Source: a virus | Taxonomy: Duplodnaviria > Heunggongvirae > Uroviricota > Caudoviricetes | IMG/VR virus record: IMGVR_UViG_2778261463_000017 | Span: 1-9,315 of that record | Strand: one strand, 5' to 3' | DNA length: 9,315 bases | Shown here: positions 1 to 9,315 of the stretch, one piece after another | Numbering within the stretch: position 1 is the first letter of the stretch | Layout of the letters: every line of letters starts with the position of its first letter | The notes under the pieces: model-generated | Seen by the model: only the letters and a program-made list of their open reading frames with translations | The model's database searches: none | What the model was told of the DNA's origin: nothing | Translations under genes and position numbers: made by a program

Positions 1-1242
1 ATGGCGAGAAAAACACACCCATTAACCACAGTGCAGATCAAAGCAGCCAGACCAGCGCAAAAGGAGTACACCCTGCAGGACGGCGGAGGGCTTTTTCTCC
101 TGGTCAAACCGTCTGGATCAAAACTCTGGAGATTTTCCTACTACCGACCATCGGACAAAAAAAGAATATTGCTGAGTTTTGGATCGCTTGAAGATGTTTC
201 CCTGGCTGATGCCAGAAAACGCCGTAGCGAGTACAGGACGTTAATCAGTGCCGGAACTGACCCGCAGGACCACGAGAGGCAAAAAAGAGAGACAGAGGCC
301 CGAAGACAAGGGAACACGTTCGAAAATGTGGCGGCGGCATGGTACCAGGTGAAAATCAGCCAGAATCTGGCCCCCAACACGATTAAAGACATCTGGCGTT
401 CGCTGGATAAATATGTATTCCCGTTCATCGGCAACACGCCAATAGATACCCTCACCGCCCGAAGGTTCGTTGAAGTGCTTACCCCCATCAAGGAGCGCGG
501 CAACCTGGAAACACTCAAGCGGGTTTTACAGCGCGTTAATGAGGTAATGGATTACGCCGCCAACAGTGGGCTGATTGATGCCAATCCGGCTATGAATGTG
601 CGTAAGGCGTTTCCCTCACCTGTAAAAAAACATATGCCAACAATCCGCCCCGAACAGCTGCCCGAGCTTATGCAGGCTTTATCAGTATCGGCAACAGAAC
701 GGCAGACCAGATTACTGATTGAATGGCAGTTACTGACCGTAACCCGTCCCGCCGAAGCGTCATCAACGCGGTGGGATGAAATCAACCTGGACGCGAAGCA
801 ATGGACGATACCTGCCGGACGCATGAAGATGCGCAGGGATCACGTTATCCCGCTTTCCGGTCAGGCTATGGCGGTGCTGGAGGCCATGAAACCAATCAGC
901 CACCACCGCAATTACGTTTTCCCAAGTCTGAAAGACCCACAGCAGCCGATGAACAGCCAGACAGCTAACGCAGCATTGCGGCGTATGGGATTCGCTGGCG
1001 TGCTGGTGTCTCATGGATTACGCGCCATATTCAGCACAGCAGCGAACGAGGAAGGATTCGAGCCGGACGTAATAGAGGCGGCACTTGCCCACGTCGACAC
1101 CAACGAAGTTAGACGGGCATACAACCGGAGCAACTACCTGGAAAAACGTGTAGTACTTATGCGCTGGTGGGGTGAATTTGTGGAAGCCGCAGCAACCGGA
1201 GTGACCATAGCCAGTGGTAAAAGGGGTATCCGTGCGGTGTAA
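1..1242 (+). CDS. int: P4-type tyrosine integrase (site-specific recombinase)
   Basis: 413-aa ORF starting MARKTHPLT...; the N-terminal block (KLWRFSYYRP...) and overall length are typical of P4/CP4-57-like integrases as I recall them. Full length from first base of window to TAA at 1240-1242. Confidence 0.9.
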   Translation: MARKTHPLTTVQIKAARPAQKEYTLQDGGGLFLLVKPSGSKLWRFSYYRPSDKKRILLSFGSLEDVSLADARKRRSEYRTLISAGTDPQDHERQKRETEARRQGNTFENVAAAWYQVKISQNLAPNTIKDIWRSLDKYVFPFIGNTPIDTLTARRFVEVLTPIKERGNLETLKRVLQRVNEVMDYAANSGLIDANPAMNVRKAFPSPVKKHMPTIRPEQLPELMQALSVSATERQTRLLIEWQLLTVTRPAEASSTRWDEINLDAKQWTIPAGRMKMRRDHVIPLSGQAMAVLEAMKPISHHRNYVFPSLKDPQQPMNSQTANAALRRMGFAGVLVSHGLRAIFSTAANEEGFEPDVIEAALAHVDTNEVRRAYNRSNYLEKRVVLMRWWGEFVEAAATGVTIASGKRGIRAV

Positions 1243-1355
1243 CTGTACAAAAAACCAGTACAACCAGTGCAAACCATGCTAAACCATCGTATAATCGCCT
1301 ATCTCCTCAACAGACAAGGAAAAACCCGACTCATGAGAAATCGAGATTTATTGAA

Positions 1356-1598
1356 ATGGTCTGGCACGAAAAATCATCCAATGTCTGCGGTGAAGGGCTG
1401 CAACTGGCGTTAATGGCAAATCGTGAATTCTGGTCAACATACGATCCGGAAGACAAATCAACAGCCCCCACAAAACACGAGGTAGTCAGTTTTTTACGCT
1501 CGCGTGGCGCATCGAAAAATCTGGCTGAAAGCATCGACAAGGTGCTGAGGCCCACCAGCCTTAAATGTGGTGGGCGACCTAAGAAGTGGAAACGGTAA
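1356..1598 (+). CDS. small hypothetical protein (start uncertain; ATG at 1416 is an alternative)
   Basis: 80-codon ORF with no clear Shine-Dalgarno, but it is followed within a few nt by a hairpin plus T-run terminator, which suggests it is a transcribed unit. No recognisable family. Confidence 0.35.
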   Translation: MVWHEKSSNVCGEGLQLALMANREFWSTYDPEDKSTAPTKHEVVSFLRSRGASKNLAESIDKVLRPTSLKCGGRPKKWKR

Positions 1599-1603
1599 TC
1601 ACA

Positions 1604-1634
1604 ATAGCGGCCCCTTGCGGTCGCTATTTTTTTG
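1604..1634 (+). terminator. rho-independent terminator
   Basis: Stem ATAGCGGCC / GGTCGCTAT around a CCTTGC loop, followed by TTTTTTT (1627-1634), directly after the stop at 1596-1598. Confidence 0.6.
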
Positions 1635-1666
1635 CAAAAAGAAAGCGTAATCAATGAGATAAAAAA

Positions 1667-1703
1667 CAGTGAGTACCGTTTTAAAACGGTGAGTACTGTT
1701 TTT
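1667..1703. promoter_or_regulatory. operator-like palindrome with flanking direct repeats upstream of alpA
   Basis: Perfect 16-bp palindrome ACCGTTTTAAAACGGT (1675-1690) embedded in a tandem direct repeat GTGAGTAC(C/T)GTTTT, about 65 bp upstream of the alpA start. Confidence 0.4.
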
Positions 1704-1767
1704 CCCGCCCTGCCCTGTTTTACCGTATTTATCACCGGAATACGCCGGATTAACGAGGTAAAACACG

Positions 1768-1974
1768 ATGGAAGTAATCAGAAAAATTCTTACCCGTCAG
1801 GAAGTAAAAAATATTCTGCGCATCAAGGCAGACAGTTCGCTACAGGACATGATCAACGCCGGAAAATTCCCGAAAGGCTTCAAAATCGGTCTGCGCCGTG
1901 TTGGCTGGTATGAAGATGAGGTGCAGGCCTGGTTGAAAGAACGCGAGGAAGAAGCGCGCGGAACGGCTGCGTAA
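1768..1974 (+). CDS. alpA: AlpA-family prophage transcriptional regulator (small HTH protein)
   Basis: 68-aa protein MEVIRKILTRQEVKNILRIKADSSLQDMINAGKFPKGFKIGLRRVGWYEDEVQAWL, a classic AlpA/phage-AlpA signature; GAGGT Shine-Dalgarno 8 nt upstream. Confidence 0.85.
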   Translation: MEVIRKILTRQEVKNILRIKADSSLQDMINAGKFPKGFKIGLRRVGWYEDEVQAWLKEREEEARGTAA

Positions 1975-2121
1975 TGGTGTGAGGTGTAACGCAATGAACA
2001 TAACAAAAAGCGCCCCGTTGCCGGAGCGCCCTTGTGAACAATTAACCTGCTGCGAAAAAAATGGATCAGTGCAGGGGAATTATATCAACCGTGTGACGAA
2101 GCGCCACAATTGCCGGATAAC

Positions 2122-2153
2122 AGGCAAAACAAAGGCCACCTGCTACGGTGGCC
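2122..2153 (-). terminator. candidate rho-independent terminator for the reverse-strand repressor gene
   Basis: Perfect 7-bp stem GGCCACC / GGTGGCC (2134-2140, 2147-2153) with a 6-nt loop; on the minus strand it is followed by TTTGTTTTG. Lies about 100 bp downstream of the stop at 2257. Confidence 0.4.
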
Positions 2154-2256
2154 ATTCGACACAAGCTACACGTTATCCCCAACGCAAGAGAGATGATTAC
2201 TATGCCGTGATTACATCCGGTTGGCAATGTGATCAGTGTGCTGGCTTGCTGGTGGG

Positions 2257-2562
2257 CTATTCCTGCTCTTTGGCTTTGCGCCGCTGGAGTTCTTCACGCG
2301 CAACGGCGACGAGTTGCCCGATCTCCTCGGCAGCTTTGACACCGATTTTTTCCACCTGCGCCAGTGCATCGAGCGAAGAAACCAGGGGATTTTCTCCTCT
2401 TCCTTCTGCCTGGCGGCGGGCGATCTCACCACGCATGGCGGTTACTATGAATCCGGCGTTGCTTTCGCCGTCCAGTTTTACGGATTCCATGCCATCAAAA
2501 GCATCATGTGGGATACGAATTGAAATCTGTTTTGATTTGTCGTTGATAGTGTTTTTTGCCAT
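2257..2562 (-). CDS. putative ribbon-helix-helix DNA-binding protein (candidate island repressor)
   Basis: 101 aa from MAKNTINDK...; the segment KQISIRIPHDAFDGMESVKL...NAGFIVTAMRGEIARR fits a beta-strand/helix/helix RHH pattern, followed by a charged helical tail. GGAGA Shine-Dalgarno 6 nt before this ATG. The longer 2257-2601 start is rejected because it has no spacing to the SD. Confidence 0.55.
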   Translation of the reverse strand: MAKNTINDKSKQISIRIPHDAFDGMESVKLDGESNAGFIVTAMRGEIARRQAEGRGENPLVSSLDALAQVEKIGVKAAEEIGQLVAVAREELQRRKAKEQE

Positions 2563-2584
2563 GTGCATTCTCCTAAACAAAATA

Positions 2585-2660
2585 TGTGATTCAGTATACA
2601 CAAAAAAGAATCACAAAAAATACTTGACCTGTGATTCAGTTGAATTTAATTTAAATCACA
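2585..2660. promoter_or_regulatory. divergent promoter/operator region between RHH gene and icd-like gene
   Basis: Two inverted-repeat pairs TGTGATTCAG...GAATCACA (2585-2615) and TGTGATTCAG...AAATCACA (2630-2660); a -35-like TTGACC (2624-2629) with TAATTT 17 bp downstream, overlapped by the second palindrome. Confidence 0.5.
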
Positions 2661-2685
2661 CCTCAGTAAGAGGATGTAAACGACA

Positions 2686-2719
2686 ACGCCCCGAACTGTT
2701 TGCGGCAGTAGCGGGGCGT
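2686..2719 (+). other. stable hairpin in the icd leader (candidate structured regulatory RNA element)
   Basis: 8-bp GC-rich stem ACGCCCCG (2686-2693) / CGGGGCGT (2712-2719) with an 18-nt loop containing an inner CTG/CAG stem; no T-run follows, so it is unlikely to be a terminator. Confidence 0.3.
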
Positions 2720-2755
2720 CTAACCACCAACGATAGCGAAAGTATCGAGGTAGCT

Positions 2756-2950
2756 ATGAGAAATCATACCACACACCCGCAAGGGCGGGACTCGCACAAC
2801 CTGAATAAATACATCTGGCGTTTTATCGCCCTGAGCACGGCACAACCGCGCGTGATTCACATCGTGGCCACCAGCGAACAGGAAGCGCGTCAGCAATCTC
2901 CTGATGGCTGCGTGATGGTATTGGCCTCCAGATTTCATCATCGCTGTTTG
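2756..2950 (+). CDS. Icd-like (host cell division inhibitor-like) small protein; 3' end undefined because the frame has no stop until 3988
   Basis: ATG at 2756 with GAGG Shine-Dalgarno; MRNHTTHPQGRDSHNLNKYIWRFIALSTAQPRVIHIVATSEQEARQQ resembles Icd-like proteins of P4-like elements as I remember them. Downstream of ~2950 the same frame becomes Cys/Arg/Ser/Phe-rich and un-protein-like, so the end given here is approximate, not a stop codon. Confidence 0.45.
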
Positions 2951-3132
2951 TTTTTTGTCTGTCTCTCCTCGGGGTATGGGGTTGTGCCGTTCCAGCGTAT
3001 GCGGGGCCGTTCACTGATGAAGCGCTCAAGCGGGAAATTATCGGATGGCGCGGGGGGCCGTACCCGTCGTTCCCGCCTCCGCTGGCGTACCACGCTGGCT
3101 TCGGTAATTTCCCCTGATTCGTTTATTTTCAT
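2938..3132 (-). CDS. small Arg/Pro-rich protein, paralogue A of a three-member mini-gene family
   Basis: 64 aa (MKINESGEITEASVVRQRRRERRVRPPAPSDNFPLERFISERPRIRW...); strong GGAGGT Shine-Dalgarno 8 nt upstream of ATG; shares the RRERR...PP.P...FPLE.FI..R.R pattern with the ORF at 3376-3546. Confidence 0.3.
   Translation of the reverse strand: MKINESGEITEASVVRQRRRERRVRPPAPSDNFPLERFISERPRIRWNGTTPYPEERQTKNKQR
3014..3033. repeat. dispersed direct repeat copy A (CTGATGAAGCGCTCAAGCGG)
   Basis: One of three copies of CTGATGAAN(3)CNNNAGCGG; 17/20 identical to copy C and 15/20 to copy B. Confidence 0.5.
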
Positions 3133-3175
3133 AAAGAGTTACCTCCGTGCTCATCTGCTCTGGCGTTTTCTGTTT

Positions 3176-3195
3176 CTGATGAAGACTTACAGCGG
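3176..3195. repeat. dispersed direct repeat copy B (CTGATGAAGACTTACAGCGG)
   Basis: 162 bp downstream of copy A (a multiple of 3); the most diverged copy, with a stop in the minus-strand reading. Confidence 0.45.
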
Positions 3196-3207
3196 TAGCG
3201 GCGTATC

Positions 3208-3324
3208 TTATTTTAAGATTTGGTTTAATTTCTCGTGTCTGGCTTTAATGACGGCGCGTAATAATATCTGTCGCTGCTTTGTGTTTACGTCCAGAACTGT
3301 GGGGGATAATATGGATTTGTTCAT
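3208..3324 (-). CDS. short ORF (38 aa), possibly a truncated paralogue B of the mini-gene family
   Basis: MNKSILSPTVLDVNTKQRQILLRAVIKARHEKLNQILK; AGGTGA Shine-Dalgarno 5 nt upstream of ATG; stops just before repeat copy B. Uses AT-rich codons (ATA, TTA), which weakens the call. Confidence 0.2.
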   Translation of the reverse strand: MNKSILSPTVLDVNTKQRQILLRAVIKARHEKLNQILK

Positions 3325-3375
3325 GGTGCTCACCTGTAATGCATTGCGTCGTGATGCCTCATATCACGGCGGCGG

Positions 3376-3546
3376 TTATCGTTTTGTTCGGATTCGTCCC
3401 CTGATGAAATCCTCAAGCGGAAAATGTTCAGGGCGAGGTAATTCAGGAGGGACAGGGTTATTACTCATGCGCTCACGTTCCCTTGCGGCGCGTGCAGCAT
3501 TCAGCTTTTGCAGGAGCACATCAAACGGCACCCCCTTATCATTCAT
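3376..3546 (-). CDS. small Arg/Pro-rich protein, paralogue C of the mini-gene family
   Basis: 56 aa (MNDKGVPFDVLLQKLNAARAARERERMSNNPVPPELPRPEHFPLEDFIRGRIRTKR); G-rich Shine-Dalgarno-like run before ATG; C-terminal half aligns with the ORF at 2938-3132. Confidence 0.3.
   Translation of the reverse strand: MNDKGVPFDVLLQKLNAARAARERERMSNNPVPPELPRPEHFPLEDFIRGRIRTKR
3401..3420. repeat. dispersed direct repeat copy C (CTGATGAAATCCTCAAGCGG)
   Basis: 225 bp downstream of copy B (a multiple of 3); differs from copy A at three adjacent positions only. Confidence 0.5.
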
Positions 3547-3700
3547 GGTCCCCCCTGTATATCCGTTGTTAACTGATGGTTACAGGTGCATTTTTCGCAC
3601 AAACTATTTAATCAACACATCCGACCACATTATCAGAGAGCCGGAATATACAGGGGCAATAATCCCGCATTTGCTGGCCTACGCACAGCTTACCGCTGAT

Positions 3701-3988
3701 ATGGCACTGAATGAGGCCAAAGCCATCCTGATTGCTGATTGTGAATATGGGGTTATGCGTGATGATCGTTTTAATGCCCTGAAACAGGAATTTGATGGCA
3801 CACCGGAAGATACAGATATTGCGCTGTTATGTGTTGCTGACATGGTAAAAGCTGCATGTTTTTTACTGGAAACCGCCGAACATTCAGGAACGGGTAGCGA
3901 TATTCTCAATATTGCGTCGGACTATGCTGAATATGTGGCAGAGGCGCGTTACAGAAGAAAATTCCAGGAGGTGGTTAGCCATGAATAA
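3701..3988 (+). CDS. hypothetical acidic protein, first gene of the replication operon (true start may be upstream)
   Basis: 95 aa (MALNEAKAILIADCEYGVMRDDRFNALKQEFDGTPEDTDIALLCVADMVKAACFLLETAEHSG...) with protein-like composition, unlike the upstream part of the same frame. No convincing Shine-Dalgarno at 3701; the stop overlaps the next gene's start. Confidence 0.5.
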   Translation: MALNEAKAILIADCEYGVMRDDRFNALKQEFDGTPEDTDIALLCVADMVKAACFLLETAEHSGTGSDILNIASDYAEYVAEARYRRKFQEVVSHE

Positions 3989-4181
3989 TCATGAAGCGCA
4001 CTTACCTGTAGTGCTTAATGTGCCATCTGATTATACGGGGCGCGTTTTGATATTCCTGGATAAAGGGAAAGTGAAATCGCAATGCCGCCTTAGAAATAAT
4101 GAGGTTATTGGTTCTCTGGCTTTTTTTTCTGAAGCCTGTATTCGCGCCGGAATAAAGCCGGAATCACTGACAGGAAAATAA
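3981..4181 (+). CDS. hypothetical small protein
   Basis: 66 aa from MNNHEAHLPVVLNVPSDYTGRVLIFLDKGKVK...; strong AGGAGGTGG Shine-Dalgarno; ATG overlaps the upstream stop (ATGAATAA), indicating translational coupling. The ORF-track start at 3912 is rejected. Confidence 0.5.
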   Translation: MNNHEAHLPVVLNVPSDYTGRVLIFLDKGKVKSQCRLRNNEVIGSLAFFSEACIRAGIKPESLTGK

Positions 4182-4185
4182 AACC

Positions 4186-4485
4186 ATGAAAAAGAAAAAT
4201 TCTGGCTTTACTGCCAGCGGCCCCGCTCGGCCTGAAATCCGTCCCGGCGATATTTTCCGTGATAACTACGGCGGTACGGTAACGATTAAAGGCGTGGCAG
4301 AACGGCGCATCACTTACCGCCGTGATGGCTACGAATATGACTGCGTGATGCCTGTTTATCAGTTCCGGCGTGATTTTTCTCTGGTACAGGCAGCGCCCCG
4401 CAGTAAACCAACCAGCAGGGAGAAAGCACGCGCCAATATTCAGAAGATGAAAACCATGATTAACGGATTCAGGGATAAAAAATGA
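4186..4485 (+). CDS. hypothetical basic protein (prophage-associated small protein of unknown function)
   Basis: 99 aa (..GDIFRDNYGGTVTIKGVAERRITYRRDGYEYDCVMPVYQFRRDFSLV..); AGGAAA 8 nt upstream; stop overlaps the primase start (ATGA). Family identity not established. Confidence 0.55.
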   Translation: MKKKNSGFTASGPARPEIRPGDIFRDNYGGTVTIKGVAERRITYRRDGYEYDCVMPVYQFRRDFSLVQAAPRSKPTSREKARANIQKMKTMINGFRDKK

Positions 4486-5897
4486 AACTGGCACCGAACT
4501 TAAAAAAACAGCCACACAACAAAATGACCGAAGTCATTATTTTTGCAGGTAGTGATGCCTGGGCGCACGCAAAACAATGGCAGGAACAGGACGGGCGACT
4601 TGCTGGCGATAACGTCCCGCCAGTATGGCTGGGAGACAGTCAGCTTGACGAACTGGCAGACCTGAAAATTATCGACGATGGTCGCTATTGTGTCCGGCTG
4701 TACAAGGCAGGCCACATCAAGCCATCAAATATTAATGCCATCGGGCAAAAACTGGCGGCGGCAGGTGTACGGGATGCGAGTTATTACCCCGAGGGAATGC
4801 ACAGCCAGAAGCGGGAGGAATGGCGCGACTACCTGCAACGGATCCGCGAACAGGCAGAGCGCGGGGAAATACTTACTGATGAGCAATACAGCCAGCGAAA
4901 AACCACGCTACCCATGAGCATTGGATCTGCAGGATACGACACACAGCTTGATTATGTCGTTAAGGGCGTGATTCCGGCTAATTCATTGTGCAGCACATAC
5001 GGTGCGAGCGGTTCCTATAAATCATTCCTTGCGTGTTCCTGGGCGTGTCATGTTGCCACGGGGCGCCACTGGGGAGGCCGCAGGGTGGCGCATGGTTCGG
5101 TGATGTATGTTGTCGGTGAAGGTGGCATTGGTGTCCCCCGTCGTATCAAGGCATGGGAAATCGTTAATGATGAACGGGTGAAAAATCTGTACCTGGTAAA
5201 CCGCCCGATTTTTCCGGCAGCCCCGCTTGATGTTGATGAAATGGTTATCGCTTCCCGCCAGGTTGAACGGGAAACGGGTAAACCGGTACGCATGATTATT
5301 CTGGATACGCTGGCGCGTTGCTTTGGCGGTAATGATGAAAATGACGCGCGGGATATGGGGGCGTTTATCCGTGGATGTGACGACCTGAAACGACGCACAG
5401 GGGCCACGGTGCTGGTGGTCCACCATTCCGGCAAGGATGAAACAAAGGGGGCGCGTGGTTCCAGTGCATTTCGTGCATCTCTGGACGCTGAATACCGTAT
5501 TCGCCGAGAAGGTGCAGACAGTAAAGCCCTGGTTATATCCTGCACCAAAATGAAGGACGCGGAGGAACTGAAAGAGGCCGCCTACGATTTACGCGTGGTG
5601 GAGCTTTTTACCGACGCTGACGGGGAGTTAATCACGTCGCTGGTGGTGGTGGATAAGCCGCGCACTCCCGTTGAACTGGAGCGCATCGAGGAGGCAGGCA
5701 ACAAGACGGAAAACCATACCGCGCTATGGCAGTGCATCAGAACGCGAACAGCACACGGGGAGGCGTGCACTATCGCCCTTCTCCGCGACGATATGAAAAA
5801 GCTGGGGTATGAGATGAAGCACTTCCGGCGCTGGCTGTCCAAGCTGGAAAAAGACGGCGTGATTTGTGTCGATGGGGATGATGTTTACCCACTGTAA
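4482..5897 (+). CDS. replication initiator: primase-like N-terminal domain fused to a RecA-like AAA ATPase (PICI pri-rep type)
   Basis: 471 aa; Walker A GASGSYKS, Walker B-like MIILDTL, and an HHSGKDETKG block typical of RepA/DnaB-like AAA ATPases; AGGGA Shine-Dalgarno 6 nt upstream; iteron array immediately downstream. Confidence 0.85.
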   Translation: MKLAPNLKKQPHNKMTEVIIFAGSDAWAHAKQWQEQDGRLAGDNVPPVWLGDSQLDELADLKIIDDGRYCVRLYKAGHIKPSNINAIGQKLAAAGVRDASYYPEGMHSQKREEWRDYLQRIREQAERGEILTDEQYSQRKTTLPMSIGSAGYDTQLDYVVKGVIPANSLCSTYGASGSYKSFLACSWACHVATGRHWGGRRVAHGSVMYVVGEGGIGVPRRIKAWEIVNDERVKNLYLVNRPIFPAAPLDVDEMVIASRQVERETGKPVRMIILDTLARCFGGNDENDARDMGAFIRGCDDLKRRTGATVLVVHHSGKDETKGARGSSAFRASLDAEYRIRREGADSKALVISCTKMKDAEELKEAAYDLRVVELFTDADGELITSLVVVDKPRTPVELERIEEAGNKTENHTALWQCIRTRTAHGEACTIALLRDDMKKLGYEMKHFRRWLSKLEKDGVICVDGDDVYPL

Positions 5898-6098
5898 AAA
5901 GTGGGTAGTAAAAGTGGGGAGAGTGGGGAATTTAACAAAATTGAAACATAATTCCCCACTTTCCCACCTGTATACATCCAAAAAAGTGGGGAGTAAAAAA
6001 CGCAATGAAAAACAAAGCATTAGATTCACTCAAAAAACGAGGTGGGGAGCAAGTGGGGAATTTAAAAAGTGGGGAGCAAAAGTGGGGAGTGGTGGGGA
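5898..6098. repeat. iteron-type replication origin (GTGGGGA repeats flanking AT-rich spacers)
   Basis: About ten copies of GTGGG(G/T)A in direct orientation (5901, 5914, 5923, 5986, 6032, 6043, 6069, 6082, 6092) and two in inverted orientation (5952-5968), with an 18-bp unit AGTGGGGAATTTAA(C/A)AAA present twice and an A-rich segment 5993-6030. Confidence 0.7.
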
Positions 6099-6350
6099 AT
6101 GAACAGAAAAACCAGAGATAAGACAGCGCCAAAATATAAAGCGTTAGACATGACAGAGCACGCCTTAAAGGTGGCAATCAGAACGATAGACCGCCACGCC
6201 GGAGAAGGATACGCGAAAGCACATCCCGAACTGATAAGTGCATTCATGACCACAGCGGCGGCAAACTTTGCCACGCTGACAGAACGGGAGATTGCCGAAG
6301 CAGAACAGGTAACAACCATCAATGTTAAAACCGGAGAGCAGACAGCATGA
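6099..6350 (+). CDS. hypothetical small protein (start uncertain)
   Basis: 83 aa from MNRKTRDK...; stop overlaps the ssb start (ATGA). The putative start sits inside the last iteron, so the start is insecure. Confidence 0.45.
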   Translation: MNRKTRDKTAPKYKALDMTEHALKVAIRTIDRHAGEGYAKAHPELISAFMTTAAANFATLTEREIAEAEQVTTINVKTGEQTA

Positions 6351-6757
6351 CAGCACAGATAGCGGCTTACGGGCGGCTGGTGGACGACCCGCAGACAAAA
6401 CAGACCAGTAAGGGTACACCGATGACGCTGGCGCGTATGGCGGTATCTTTACCATGCGGCCAGGCACAGGACGGACAGGCGACGTTATGGTTATCGGTCA
6501 TCGCATTTGGCAAACAGGCCGACTTTCTGGCTAAACATCAAAAAGGCGACGTTGCCAGCGTATCCGGCACGATGCAGGTCAGCCAGTGGACCGGACAGAA
6601 CGGGGAAACGCGGCAGGGTTATCAGGTCATTGCAGACAGTGTAATCAGTGCCCGTGCTGCACGTCCTGGCGGGAGCAGACGCACAACCACAGGCACACAG
6701 GGGAATAAGCCACCAGCGGGAGGCGATGACCCTTACGGTGATGATATTCCGTTCTGA
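6347..6757 (+). CDS. ssb: single-stranded DNA-binding protein (SSB)
   Basis: 136 aa; OB-fold-like N-terminus (GRLVDDPQ..., WLSVIAFGKQADFL, QWTGQNGETRQGYQVIADSV), a Gly/Pro-rich linker and the acidic C-terminal tail ending DDIPF characteristic of bacterial/phage SSBs; GGAGAG Shine-Dalgarno. Confidence 0.8.
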   Translation: MTAQIAAYGRLVDDPQTKQTSKGTPMTLARMAVSLPCGQAQDGQATLWLSVIAFGKQADFLAKHQKGDVASVSGTMQVSQWTGQNGETRQGYQVIADSVISARAARPGGSRRTTTGTQGNKPPAGGDDPYGDDIPF

Positions 6758-6767
6758 GGGGGTGACG

Positions 6768-7040
6768 ATGGTACATGACCGGATAGCGGAGGAACTGGAG
6801 GCGAAAGGATTTTACCGGAGGGCGGCGGCGCGATGGGGTGAAGTTATGTGGCTGGTGAGCACTGACAAGGAGCGCGAACAGGTGGCAATGCGACGGCTGG
6901 AATGTTCCCGGAAGGCACAGAGGCCACCGGAGCCGCCGGATGATTTAGGCGCTCTGAAAAGGTCAGTTAATCGCACTGAAAAACAAATGGGGATAGCTGG
7001 TATTGGCAAAGCAATATGGCGCAACTACCCGCAGAAGTGA
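6768..7040 (+). CDS. PerC-family transcriptional regulator-like protein
   Basis: 90 aa from MVHDRIAEELEAKGFYRRAAARWGEVM...; this N-terminal motif resembles PerC/Pch-type prophage regulators as I recall them; GAGGGGG Shine-Dalgarno. The ORF-track start at 6648 overlaps ssb and is rejected. Confidence 0.55.
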   Translation: MVHDRIAEELEAKGFYRRAAARWGEVMWLVSTDKEREQVAMRRLECSRKAQRPPEPPDDLGALKRSVNRTEKQMGIAGIGKAIWRNYPQK

Positions 7041-7046
7041 GCACAC

Positions 7047-7071
7047 AGCCGGAGCAATCCGGCTTTTTTAC
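7047..7071 (+). terminator. rho-independent terminator ending the replication/regulatory operon
   Basis: Hairpin AGCCGGA-GCAA-TCCGGCT followed by TTTTTTA, 7 nt after the PerC-like stop. Confidence 0.65.
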
Positions 7072-7081
7072 GCCTAAAAAA

Positions 7082-7114
7082 AGCCCGATAAGGTCACAGG
7101 GGGCTTATCGGGCT
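7082..7114. terminator. second hairpin, possibly a bidirectional terminator
   Basis: 11-bp stem AGCCCGATAAG / CTTATCGGGCT flanked by AAAAAAA upstream and TTTTG downstream. Confidence 0.4.
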
Positions 7115-7196
7115 TTTGTATACGAGGTTTTTTATGGTGCACTGACACACATGATCGGGATAATCATTTCATAATTTGCAACGTAACTCAATATTG

Positions 7197-7224
7197 TTGC
7201 GCAAAATGCAATCATGATTATAAT
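7197..7224 (+). promoter_or_regulatory. candidate sigma70 promoter of the capsid operon
   Basis: TTGCGC (7197-7202), 16-bp spacer, consensus TATAAT (7219-7224); the -35 lies in a palindromic TTGCGCAA. Confidence 0.45.
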
Positions 7225-7228
7225 CAGG

Positions 7229-7246
7229 ACTGGATGAACATCCAGT
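7229..7246. promoter_or_regulatory. operator-like palindrome just downstream of the -10
   Basis: ACTGGATG-AA-CATCCAGT: 8-bp perfect inverted arms with a 2-nt centre, starting 5 bp after the TATAAT. Confidence 0.4.
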
Positions 7247-7280
7247 TATGATTTTTTAAGTCAAAGAGGAATTTCTGACT

Positions 7281-7487
7281 ATGGCAGAAGAGAAAAAAGG
7301 CGGGGTGACGGTCTACATAAGCCCCGACATCGTGGAGGCGCTCAAGGAACGCCACCAGCAGAATGTAAAAGCAGGCATTGCGGCAGGACTTGATCCGCTG
7401 GCGATGGTTGAGCCGTCAACAGGCTGGCAGGTGCGCACCTATTTACGTGCGGCGCTGGGTATCAATCAGGTTCACGGAGGTGAATAA
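7281..7487 (+). CDS. small hypothetical protein, first gene of the capsid operon
   Basis: 68 aa (MAEEKKGGVTVYISPDIVEALKERHQQNVKAGIAAGL...); AGAGGA Shine-Dalgarno; its TAA overlaps the capsid gene ATG by one base (TAATG). Confidence 0.5.
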   Translation: MAEEKKGGVTVYISPDIVEALKERHQQNVKAGIAAGLDPLAMVEPSTGWQVRTYLRAALGINQVHGGE

Positions 7488-8542
7488 TGACAGGCAAAGC
7501 AACGGCACTTACAACTAACCAGCTTTTCGCGTACCTGAATCGCGGGGATATTGCGGATTTTAAATTCAGCCCTCTGTTTACCACGCTGTTTTTCCCGAAC
7601 GTGGCGACCTTCAACACCCAAAACATCATGCTGGACACCCTGGACATTGAAGAGGTTACGATGTCAGCGTTCTGTTCGCCTATGGTGGGTAGTCAGGTCC
7701 AGCGCGATAAAGGGTACGAAACCAGCACGATTAAACCCGGCTACATGAAGCCAAAGCACGAAATCGATCCAACAAAGACCATCATGCGCATGGCTGGAGA
7801 AGATCCGGCACAGCTTAACGATCCAACTTACCGCCGTATGCGCCTGATTACTGGCAACATGCGCCGCCAGATAAACGCCATTAAGGCGCGCGTGGAATGG
7901 CTGGCGGTGAATGCGGTAACGACCGGAAAAAACATCATTGAGGGCGAAGGCATAGAACGCTATGAAATCGACTGGAAAATACCGGAAAACTGCATCATAC
8001 AGCAGGCCAGTGGTAAAAAATGGTCCGAGCAGGATAAAGACATGCACGACCCAATCTATGACATCGAGCTTTATGCTGATCAGGCAGGTTGCCCCGCCAA
8101 CGTCATGATTATGGGCGGTGAGGTATGGCGCACATTACGCAGCTTTAAAAAATTCCGTGAACTGTACGATCTTTCGCGTGGCTCAGAATCCGCCGCCGAG
8201 CTGGCCTGTAAAAACCTGGGCGAAGTGGTGAGCTTTAAAGGCTATCTTGGTGATCTGGGCCTTATCGTCTATTCCGGCAAATACACTGACAGCGACGGCA
8301 CCGAAAAATATTTCCTTGAGCCTGATTTGCTGGTCCTGGGTAACACCAACAATAAAGGGCTGGTGGCCTATGGTGCGATTATGGATCAGGAAGCGGTAAG
8401 AACGGGCGCAACGCAAAACATGTACTACCCGAAAAACTGGATTGAGGACGGCGATCCGGCGATTGAGTACGTGCAGACGCACAGCGCACCGCAGCCGGTA
8501 CCGGCAGATATTCGCAAATTTGTTACCGTCAAAATTGCTTAA
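7487..8542 (+). CDS. lambda gpE-like major capsid protein (HK97-fold MCP family)
   Basis: 351 aa; colinear similarity to lambda gpE as I recall it (KFxPLF..LFF near the N-terminus, PGYMKPKHE, RRMRLI..NMR, KWSEQDK, RSFK, GSESA, VSFKGYLGDLGLIVYSGKY, VLGNT, YPKNW..GDPA); strong GGAGGTG Shine-Dalgarno. Confidence 0.85.
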   Translation: MTGKATALTTNQLFAYLNRGDIADFKFSPLFTTLFFPNVATFNTQNIMLDTLDIEEVTMSAFCSPMVGSQVQRDKGYETSTIKPGYMKPKHEIDPTKTIMRMAGEDPAQLNDPTYRRMRLITGNMRRQINAIKARVEWLAVNAVTTGKNIIEGEGIERYEIDWKIPENCIIQQASGKKWSEQDKDMHDPIYDIELYADQAGCPANVMIMGGEVWRTLRSFKKFRELYDLSRGSESAAELACKNLGEVVSFKGYLGDLGLIVYSGKYTDSDGTEKYFLEPDLLVLGNTNNKGLVAYGAIMDQEAVRTGATQNMYYPKNWIEDGDPAIEYVQTHSAPQPVPADIRKFVTVKIA

Positions 8543-8553
8543 CGGGGGATTCT

Positions 8554-8889
8554 ATGGACGCTCCATACATTGAGTTATTTTCAGGCAGCCAGCAGGTATC
8601 CACGACGCTGGTACATTTTGCCGCTGATGCTGGCGTTATTCAGGAATTTACCCCGCTGATGCTGGCAGACAATGGCGAGTTTAAGGCGTGGGATGGTCAG
8701 GAATCTGGCAAAGCTGTTTATCTGACTTCGCACCCCGTGGACACGTCAAAGCAGAAATCAGCACAGTGTTACAAAACGGGGATATTCAATATTGCCGCCG
8801 TTAACTGGCCTGATAGCGTCGACACCGATGCGAAAAAATGCGCCGCCTTTGCGGGTTCCGGCGTATCCGTTCAGCCGCTGGCCCGATAA
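8554..8889 (+). CDS. lambda gpD-like head decoration protein
   Basis: 111 aa; PLMLADNGEFKAWDG, YKTGIF, VNWPDSVDTDAKKCAAFAGSGVSV parallel the gpD blocks PLMLD..AWDG, YKSGTF, WPEA..ETKKRTAFAGTAISIV. Confidence 0.7.
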   Translation: MDAPYIELFSGSQQVSTTLVHFAADAGVIQEFTPLMLADNGEFKAWDGQESGKAVYLTSHPVDTSKQKSAQCYKTGIFNIAAVNWPDSVDTDAKKCAAFAGSGVSVQPLAR

Positions 8890-8901
8890 GCAGGGGGAAC
8901 G

Positions 8902-9315
8902 ATGGCAACGAATGAAAGTATCATGACGCTACCGCTGGCGAGTAAATTTAAAGCCGAAGCGCGGGCAATGGCTGACAGAGGTTTATCAACCTACGAGGCC
9001 ATACACCGACTAAACAAACTGGAAGAACAGGACAAGCCGCGCGCTGATGCGATTATGGCGCTTCATGAATCTGACGACTACCAGCCGCTGTTACGTGCAA
9101 TGGCTAACGTGCCTTGTATCGATGTTGGTACGGCTAAAAGCATCCTTAGCATGACCATAGAGCAGGAACGCCCGAAGGTTGCACCAGAGCTTACTTCAGC
9201 CTTTGAAAACTTTATGGACATGCACAGCCCGAAAGCCGTATCAGCTGGCATGGCATACGATGGCAGAAACCCGGGCGATGACGGCGACATCGATCACATA
9301 CTGAAAACCATCTGA
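8902..9315 (+). CDS. hypothetical protein downstream of the decoration gene
   Basis: 137 aa with AGGGGGAA Shine-Dalgarno, ending TGA at the last bases of the window; composition is protein-like (charged, helical N-terminus). Function not recognisable. Confidence 0.55.
   Translation: MATNESIMTLPLASKFKAEARAMADRGLSTYEAIHRLNKLEEQDKPRADAIMALHESDDYQPLLRAMANVPCIDVGTAKSILSMTIEQERPKVAPELTSAFENFMDMHSPKAVSAGMAYDGRNPGDDGDIDHILKTI

Follow-up and report, generated by a model that had tools for sequence, protein, structure and literature searches.

Candidate leftward small-protein genes lie antisense within an Eta-like open frame in an Escherichia coli satellite

The nested genes eta and kil reportedly lie in the left operon of phage P4 (Forti et al. 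1999, J Bacteriol 181:5225, as summarized in PMC10111431). In the immI region of phages P1 and P7, which consists of the c4 antisense RNA, icd and ant, translational repression of icd leads to Rho-dependent termination. For P4, PMC10111431 describes translation of eta from an upstream late promoter, which prevents termination such that transcription reads through, and it treats such genes as domain-swapping Bro-network proteins. In the phage-inducible chromosomal islands (PICIs) of Gram-negative bacteria, AlpA is the helper-induced activator, and no global repressor is reported to have been identified. Eta-type open reading frames (ORFs) coupled to alpA are already known, as are the long 'Icd-like' proteins called by PGAP. 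We analyzed 9,315 nt of DNA (positions 1 to 9,315 of the IMG/VR virus record IMGVR_UViG_2778261463_000017; hereafter the window), which covers the left part of a PICI-type satellite that is integrated at tRNA-Pro in E. coli, and in which an array of three mini-ORFs on the minus strand lies opposite a 665-codon ORF on the plus strand. Our analysis gives us reasonable, though by no means strong, confidence that real leftward small-protein genes are situated here within a P4 Eta-like ORF, whose translation would protect the alpA-initiated transcript from premature termination.

The long plus ORF resembles P4 eta/kil in order, coupling and nested start: a long ORF starts at the end of an alpA/vis homologue and contains a Kil/Icd-like domain with an internal in-frame start. 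Its likely start codon (ATG at 1994, with GAGGTG 7 nt upstream) is found 20 nt past the alpA stop codon (1972-1974), and its own stop codon overlaps the ATG of the next gene (3981). The Icd/Kil-like domain has its own Shine-Dalgarno (SD) sequence (GAGGT) and an ATG at 2756 and lacks the usual stop codon; because this stop is missing, the domain is not C-terminal in the long ORF. In P4 itself (L008; L numbers denote the loci used for comparison), the end of orf88, the AlpA homologue, is overlapped by the open frame, which then extends over the RNA genes isrK/seqA and C4/CI and has the Icd-like Kil domain as its last part. At 197 codons, however, P4 eta is shorter and covers the constitutive PLE promoter together with genes for RNAs (seqA or isrK, and CI/C4), a set that was not found in the window, whereas the window ORF spans complete antisense protein genes (YlcI and three cassettes) and continues past Icd into downstream genes. 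The point of resemblance to P1/P7 immI is an Icd-type leader ORF whose translation decides if the genes downstream are transcribed. In immI, an RNA that blocks the ribosome binding site exerts this control; the window has neither c4 RNA nor ant, and its long ORF is coupled to the activator gene upstream.

Two further comparisons are relevant. The window has in common with Gram-negative PICIs and capsid-forming PICIs (cf-PICIs) int, alpA, a Bro/Icd zone, DUF4222, RepA, SSB, PerC, a lambda-E-type capsid with decoration protein, and tRNA-Pro, but the PICI papers (Fillol-Salom 2018, PMC6092414; Alqurainy 2022/23; PMC10111431 on HE-PICIs) describe neither leftward small-ORF arrays nor antisense embedding, and there is no description of the leftward small-protein family or of its systematic antisense embedding in the literature searched. 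Similarly, antisense overlapping gene pairs of bacteria and phages have opposite-strand frames on the same DNA with coincident wobble positions, but in the window selection on one partner apparently acts on its openness and translation and not on its product, this partner overlaps a whole multigene operon, and the arrangement recurs across many array variants.

In every intact related island that we fetched, one plus-strand frame, or two overlapping ones, stays open over the whole leftward array, beginning where the rightward gene before it ends and reaching into the Ash/Icd region, and in 17 intact loci every family member is located within such a frame and in the same relative phase. In the window, the frame of the long ORF has 0 stops, compared to 10-15 in the other plus frames; arrays A and B of the window (array B being the mini-ORF array, 685 nt, 2941-3625) and the arrays of L002, L003 and L007 likewise have 0, compared to 6-37, and the array region of L006 and L016 is covered by two overlapping open plus frames. 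The entire mini-ORF array is antisense within the stop-free plus frame, as is the YlcI gene, and the antisense stretches bridged by the long ORF are 1994-2680 (YlcI) and 2951-3544 (mini-ORFs). The first-pass annotation had suggested that the array, oriented against both neighboring operons, could be a new regulatory or interference module, and had found no start codon in the plus frame that it considered. That frame, reading D-E-x-L-K-R, is not the relevant one: the frame that reads L-M-K-x-S-S-G over the motif is open from 1937 to 3988, and the array does not stand alone between two operons but is embedded in an alpA-coupled plus ORF on which selection against stops is very strong.

We considered that the region might be an ordinary leftward accessory operon, with the open plus frame arising by chance or from base composition and reflecting an artefact of annotation, since antisense frames of purine-rich genes can be long and since PGAP annotation is inconsistent between genomes. 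We find this barely credible. In synonymous-codon randomizations of 22 minus ORFs, about 22 plus-frame stops were expected (21-23) and none was observed (joint P ~1e-12), and the segments between minus ORFs also had 0 plus-frame stops, where the remaining frames contained 41 and 55 and 39.6 were expected (P = 6e-18), although these joint P-values are overstated because the compared pairs share ancestry, a first point that counts against our interpretation. Moreover, the pattern holds across non-homologous cassettes and their junctions, and the plus ORFs begin at canonical coupled starts. In L002, L003 and L007, the start is AGGGGAG-5nt-ATG directly past the alpA stop; in L012, it is ATGCCTGA, a start/stop overlap with antA; and in L006 and L016, which have two plus ORFs, the TGA of the first is inside the SD sequence of the next. 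We conclude that the plus frame is stop-free far beyond chance in every intact related island, and that this signal is overwhelming despite P-values inflated by ancestry.

If the plus strand alone coded, it would specify an Eta or Bro-network protein with the repeated peptide L-M-K-x-S-S-G, and the minus mini-ORFs would be shadow ORFs arising from the favorable antisense phase. The plus frame is indeed the strongest ORF signal of the region, is annotated by PGAP (as a 595-aa 'Icd-like' protein in the near-identical island L001), and is of the kind assigned to the Bro network in PMC10111431. Minus-phase stop counts also match the expectation from the plus protein, in that keeping the plus amino acids constant reveals no shortage of stops in the minus phase; this too counts against our interpretation, and the length of the minus ORFs is accordingly no proof of minus coding. 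Nevertheless, we consider plus-only coding quite unlikely on several grounds. The ratio of nonsynonymous to synonymous substitution (dN/dS) was 0.41 in the minus frame and 0.61 in the plus frame, and was lower in the minus frame in all seven orthologous pairs, with two reservations against our reading, namely that the comparison is confounded because the wobble positions of the two frames coincide and that minus dN/dS is just moderately low (0.06-1.1). Amino acid replacements were more conservative in the minus frame (mean BLOSUM62 score -0.03 compared to -0.86), again in seven of seven pairs, and synonymous changes at first positions also favored the minus frame. Across 17 unique cassettes the minus ATG never varies, although the plus residue that spans it can be F, S, V or L, always with C as its wobble base. 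Plus translation yields 5.7% Cys (~5 times normal) and 13.7% Ser, the translated long ORF as a whole being rich in Cys, Ser and Phe; the minus ORFs have 0.6% Cys and are rich in Arg, Glu and Lys. Furthermore, the minus YlcI/YnfO gene matches an independent curated family, an SD sequence precedes each ATG, leftward terminators follow the last leftward gene, and replacements within the motif of the small-protein family are conservative and protein-like (FALEDF, FAIEDF, YALEEF). In our reading of these sequences, the minus frame bears protein-level constraint and the plus frame is constrained to stay open and be translated; both DNA strands of the array region appear to be under selection.

True dual coding, in which both the leftward small proteins and the long plus polypeptide with its antisense-derived parts are functional, strikes us as unlikely. 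The shared-wobble phase is the one that best tolerates two coding frames, plus dN/dS is below 1 in most pairs, and the plus ORF contains real domains in its Icd-like and phrog_2512 parts. In contrast, the array types do not share a conserved plus sequence, and the composition of the plus sequence over the arrays is aberrant; non-homologous cassettes have been swapped freely with openness alone kept; and two coupled ORFs make up the bridge in L006 and L016, as would fit if translation, and not a particular protein, is what is required.

The leftward ORFs belong to a family of proteins of 56-92 aa with the C-terminal helix motif F-[AP]-L-E-x-F-[ILV]. A word-indexed profile search yielded 21 family proteins, and an exhaustive hidden Markov model (HMM) search of 1.84e9 representatives yielded 20 family clusters (50% identity); members with a source name are all from E. 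coli or Shigella, and all are annotated as hypothetical. The family architecture comprises an N-terminal helix, often with (I/L)xERQRE, followed by a Pro-rich linker, the motif, and a basic tail, as in KYPRRLKATKNRPPG. In PICI/P4-like satellites, the family occurs as one to four tandem leftward cassettes; in island L003, for instance, four leftward genes annotated as 'hypothetical' encode this C-terminal motif, and the L003 array has blastn matches in 836 of 5426 E. coli genomes. The 620 nt at 2941-3560 of the window are present in 10 of the 5426 complete E. coli genomes only, all with at least 99.8% identity.

We found no Pfam, NCBIfam, PHROG or PADLOC family for ORF64, the first of the two intact window ORFs, and the family libraries returned for the other, ORF56, a CRF match alone, below threshold. 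The other family members had no significant PHROG match, the mini-ORFs did not match the YlcI/YnfO family NF041551, and tblastn with P0004 and with the YlcI-like protein retrieved none of 50,697 phage records. ORF56 is identical in sequence to database protein P0006, and its AlphaFold2 (AF2) model consists of two helices (8-29 and 43-52; predicted local distance difference test score 77) with no globular fold. The first-pass annotation was supported on three points: no described family matches the mini-ORFs; substitutions favor the minus frame by both dN/dS and BLOSUM62; and the mini-ORFs are conserved as a family in related E. coli satellites and are always antisense, since the family HMM matched the 19 fetched loci only on the strand opposite the alpA-to-replication operon.

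Because the N-terminal helix is hypervariable (dN/dS to 1.1) while the C-terminal helix is conserved and copy number varies, the sequences suggest a fast-evolving, partner-binding role for the small proteins. Speculatively, the variable N-terminal helix might give specificity and the conserved C-terminal helix might dock on the partner.

Degraded remnants with a single cassette of the 62-aa type are found beside insertion sequence (IS) fragments in L005, L018, L023 and L024, which come from O157:H7 and other strains. These are 76% identical to L003, and the plus frame has one stop there (L005 5060-5062).

The window array had been recognized by a 20-nt motif reported at 3014, 3176 and 3401. 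A repeat search placed these three sites, 162 and 225 nt apart, in a single family, and the pattern CTGATGAANNNCNNNAGCGG matched exactly at 3014 and 3401 (two matches, where 200 shuffles gave an expectation of 0.00); the copy at 3176 (CTGATGAAGACTTACAGCGG) departs once from the consensus, with T for C at position 12, so the sites and spacing stood while an exact consensus did not hold for this copy. The three copies are coding sequence for the conserved C-terminal amphipathic helix of three tandem paralogues. All leftward genes are in a single relative phase, in which minus and plus third codon positions coincide, and every minus ORF, including the YlcI-like gene (2257-2601 in the ORF list), has an end coordinate of 0 mod 3; we attribute the repeat spacing in multiples of 3 to the plus-frame constraint, which puts every leftward gene in the shared-wobble phase. 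The in-phase spacing and the codon-wise differences between copies were both correctly noted in the first-pass annotation, as were the minus-strand SD sequence and ATG of each unit and the count of two intact copies and one truncated copy. ORF64 is preceded by GGAGG 9 nt ahead of its ATG, and ORF56 by GGGGGG 3 nt ahead. The middle copy, listed as a GTG ORF at 3208-3333, has a likely ATG at 3324 with AGGTGA 5 nt upstream, and two in-frame TAA codons (3210-3208 and 3189-3187). Since its alignment to the intact 67-aa L003 homologue has no gaps, the middle copy is a nonsense-mutated rather than a frameshifted paralogue.

Three spaced copies could instead represent a cis-acting DNA or RNA element, such as iterons or origin repeats, operators, or seqA-like targets of an immunity RNA, all the more as a conserved ~50-nt leader with a weak hairpin accompanies many cassettes and as related islands use RNA-RNA immunity. 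We judge a noncoding repeat very unlikely. There is no tandem array, in that TRF found no tandem repeats across 2900-3700, and the spacings of 162 and 225 nt are irregular; differences between copies are codon-wise and follow the minus frame; and the motif is the best-conserved part of the protein alignment, with conservative substitutions. Moreover, there is no C4 or isrK match in the window, while in L003 the complementarity to the C4 loop maps elsewhere, at 5214 and 5478. The leader hairpin itself is weak (consensus energy -1.3 kcal/mol), with compensatory changes in four of seven pairs.

The ~50-nt leader is found at 3334-3375 of the window and ahead of most cassettes in L002, L003, L007, L009, L011, L012 and L016, with the consensus …GCGCCGTGrTGTGAGGnACTnCGGCGCATTGCTTTACAGG…ATG, and is conserved more strongly than the ORF bodies.

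Comparison with L002 indicates how the long ORF was assembled. Array B, which is inserted in the rightward early operon of this capsid-encoding satellite, stands in place of 110 nt of L002, between icd and the next gene, and its insertion removed the icd stop and fused two frames that were once separate; the segment at 3626-3988 is 92% identical to L002 from 4375 onward.

In the interpretation that we favor, what matters would be the act of translating the plus ORF rather than its Cys/Ser/Phe-rich product, by analogy with P4 eta/kil. Ribosomes loaded by coupling to alpA would trail RNA polymerase across ~1.3 kb of antisense DNA, and their passage would avert Rho-dependent polarity on the helper-induced alpA transcript, such that the replication genes are expressed. 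The long plus ORF would thus act as an Eta-like anti-polarity device, bridging in this case whole antisense genes. The leftward unit, with its own SD sequences and with two intrinsic terminators shortly past the start codon of the plus ORF, would be expressed in the quiescent state to yield the small proteins and YlcI, antisense to icd; together, the small proteins, YlcI and the operator-like pairs make up a candidate maintenance operon.

Beyond the reservations raised with the stop counts and substitution rates, several observations weigh against this interpretation. Over the arrays, the plus RNA lacks a C>G skew of the rut-like kind. Promoter scan and inspection near 3547-3640 revealed no convincing leftward sigma-70 promoter. 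The window has no C4 or isrK Rfam match at E <= 1, with a terminator-like isrD match alone, and so is without the C4/seqA immunity set from which eta derives its rationale in P4. In L021 the open frame begins ~80 nt past alpA, and in L004 (strain B771), one of the ten genomes with array B, the long ORF is frameshifted. This frameshift falls in the Icd part (L004 2746-2992) and splits the long ORF into overlapping frames at 2053-2817 and 2795-4048.

A more far-reaching proposal, which we put forward tentatively and hold to be doubtful, is a two-strand coding switch between a quiescent leftward operon and helper-induced plus translation through the array, which would silence the leftward operon. 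The leftward operon, which has at most four genes for small proteins and may or may not include YlcI, would be wholly inside the ribosome-shielding ORF, and leftward transcription during quiescence would make the small proteins and exert antisense and collision control of alpA read-through and of the toxic icd/kil. Such a switch, if true, would be a new kind of toggle for satellite immunity and induction, in which the hypervariable N-terminal helices might sense or inhibit specific helpers or competitors.

Whether bacteria have antisense overlapping genes is disputed, and the present system comes with built-in controls, namely stops that are silent on the other strand; it offers unusually clean comparative evidence for two-strand selection, from hundreds of E. 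coli genomes and at least eight cassette combinations. If our favored interpretation is correct, the P4 eta principle, that translation and not its product licenses transcription, would extend to the bridging of entire antisense operons, and such bridging would explain why PICIs tolerate leftward cassettes inserted in their early operon. Repressor and maintenance functions of Gram-negative PICIs are still described as unclear, and the window points to an unrecognized leftward gene set in these islands, with FALEDF-motif proteins, a YlcI ribbon-helix-helix candidate, and operator-like palindromes (Table 1).

Table 1. Positions of the features discussed, in window coordinates
Feature	Position	Strand	Evidence and remarks
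alpA (AlpA/Vis-type regulator)	1768..1974	+	Pfam Phage_AlpA, E = 5.6e-9; helix-turn-helix (HTH) regulator in L001
Eta-like read-through ORF	1994..3988	+	Stop-free frame 1937-3988; ORF list and stop-to-stop scan
Intrinsic terminator of leftward unit	2006..2033	-	12-bp stem then TTTTTGTTAT; within first codons of plus ORF
Second leftward intrinsic terminator	2134..2153	-	Terminator scan; weak isrD-like Rfam match
YlcI/YnfO-family gene, likely ribbon-helix-helix	2257..2562	-	NF041551, E = 6.4e-18; phrog_6522, E = 3e-57; annotated in L004
Operator-like region	2585..2660		Two TGTGATTC-N15-GAATCACA inverted pairs between YlcI and Icd starts
Icd/Kil-like domain	2756..2940	+	In frame of long ORF; NF033153, E = 1.8e-16 (2810-2935); phrog_6196, E = 6.7e-38
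ORF64, intact (…NFPLERFISER…)	2938-3132	-	64 aa; ORF list; family HMM, E = 2.4e-16
Motif copy 1	3014..3033		Minus-strand reading PLERFIS; pattern match and repeat search
Middle copy, pseudogene/truncated	3151..3333	-	Homologous to 67-aa MSKHRFSPVTPNISALQRQRL…PPLEVFLSGR type; ungapped DNA alignment to L003 4789-4992
Motif copy 2	3176..3195		Minus-strand reading PL*VFIR; repeat search and sequence
Conserved cassette leader (CGCCGTGATATGAGGCATCACGACGCAATGCATTACAGG)	3334..3375	-	Segment most similar to L003
ORF56, intact (…HFPLEDFIRGR…)	3376-3546	-	56 aa; ORF list and family HMM
Motif copy 3	3401..3420		Minus-strand reading PLEDFIR; pattern match and repeat search
Segment shared with region upstream of seqA/C4 immunity set in L003, L007 (TTTTTCGCACAAACT…CAACACATCCGACCAC)	3590..3660	+	blastn to L003 5105-5175
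C-terminal part of long ORF	3626..3988	+	phrog_2512, phrog_24341; homologous to ordinary downstream genes of related islands

The gene order of the island is integrase (1-1242), AlpA, YlcI/YnfO (minus), Icd-like, DUF4222, RepA helicase, SSB, lambda-E-type major capsid and decoration protein. Similarly, the near-identical island L001 is annotated with tRNA-Pro, integrase, an HTH protein, RepA helicase, SSB, PerC, ProQ/FinO, major capsid and head decoration. As in PICIs and cf-PICIs, int, alpA, a replication module and the island's own capsid genes are co-oriented at a tRNA site.

The operator-like region is composed of four TGTGATT(C/T) octamers, which make the two inverted pairs and overlap a TTGACC -35-like hexamer; from their sequence, these octamers are putative operators, possibly for the YlcI ribbon-helix-helix-like protein. 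The segment shared with L003 and L007 is, by its sequence, a candidate divergent-promoter region for array B. The sub-threshold isrD Rfam match (22 bits, E = 0.72) falls at 2128-2170 on the minus strand, on GGCCACC…GGTGGCC followed by a T-run, and is most likely just a terminator.

The trio of mini-ORFs was also considered as part of a P4-type RNA immunity set, and this was ruled out, as Rfam found no C4 RNA in the window while finding it in P4, L003 and L007, which served as positive controls. Pairing of the C4 loop with the cassette leaders was likewise rejected, with a match of just 6 nt. L003 and L007 have complete P4-type immunity sets, in which the C4/CI loop is complementary to a seqA-like site upstream of C4 and a seqC-like site overlapping the icd SD sequence; L003 has two C4 copies, and the sets are located at 5214, 5353-5440, 5478 and 5834-5921 in L003 and at 4845-4932 in L007. 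In the loci seen, C4 and YlcI seem to be mutually exclusive, each island having one of the two.

Annotation of homologous DNA by PGAP differs between islands. The result is either a single plus 'Icd-like' or 'ash family' protein of 418-596 aa, as in L001 (5386-7173) and L007 (3901-5157), or several minus hypotheticals, as in L003, L006 and L016, and never both, which amounts to a systematic annotation problem. Moreover, because Pfam Phage_ASH matches the plus frame over the C4 gene (L003 5162-5528), this family may largely reflect an RNA gene.

At 2686-2727 of the window, ~35 nt upstream of the Icd SD sequence and ATG, a hairpin rich in GC (CGCCCCG…CGGGGCG) precedes TCTAACCA and could be a control element in the 5' untranslated region of icd. 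The hairpin is also present in L022 (~4020-4060) and L016 (~3320-3360), is kept in islands without C4 RNA, and has a fold z-score of -1.6. Finally, an 80-aa plus ORF (1356-1598) between int and alpA, annotated as hypothetical (231 nt) in L001 and L022 and with no family match, is flanked by hairpins at 1603-1628 and 1674-1691.

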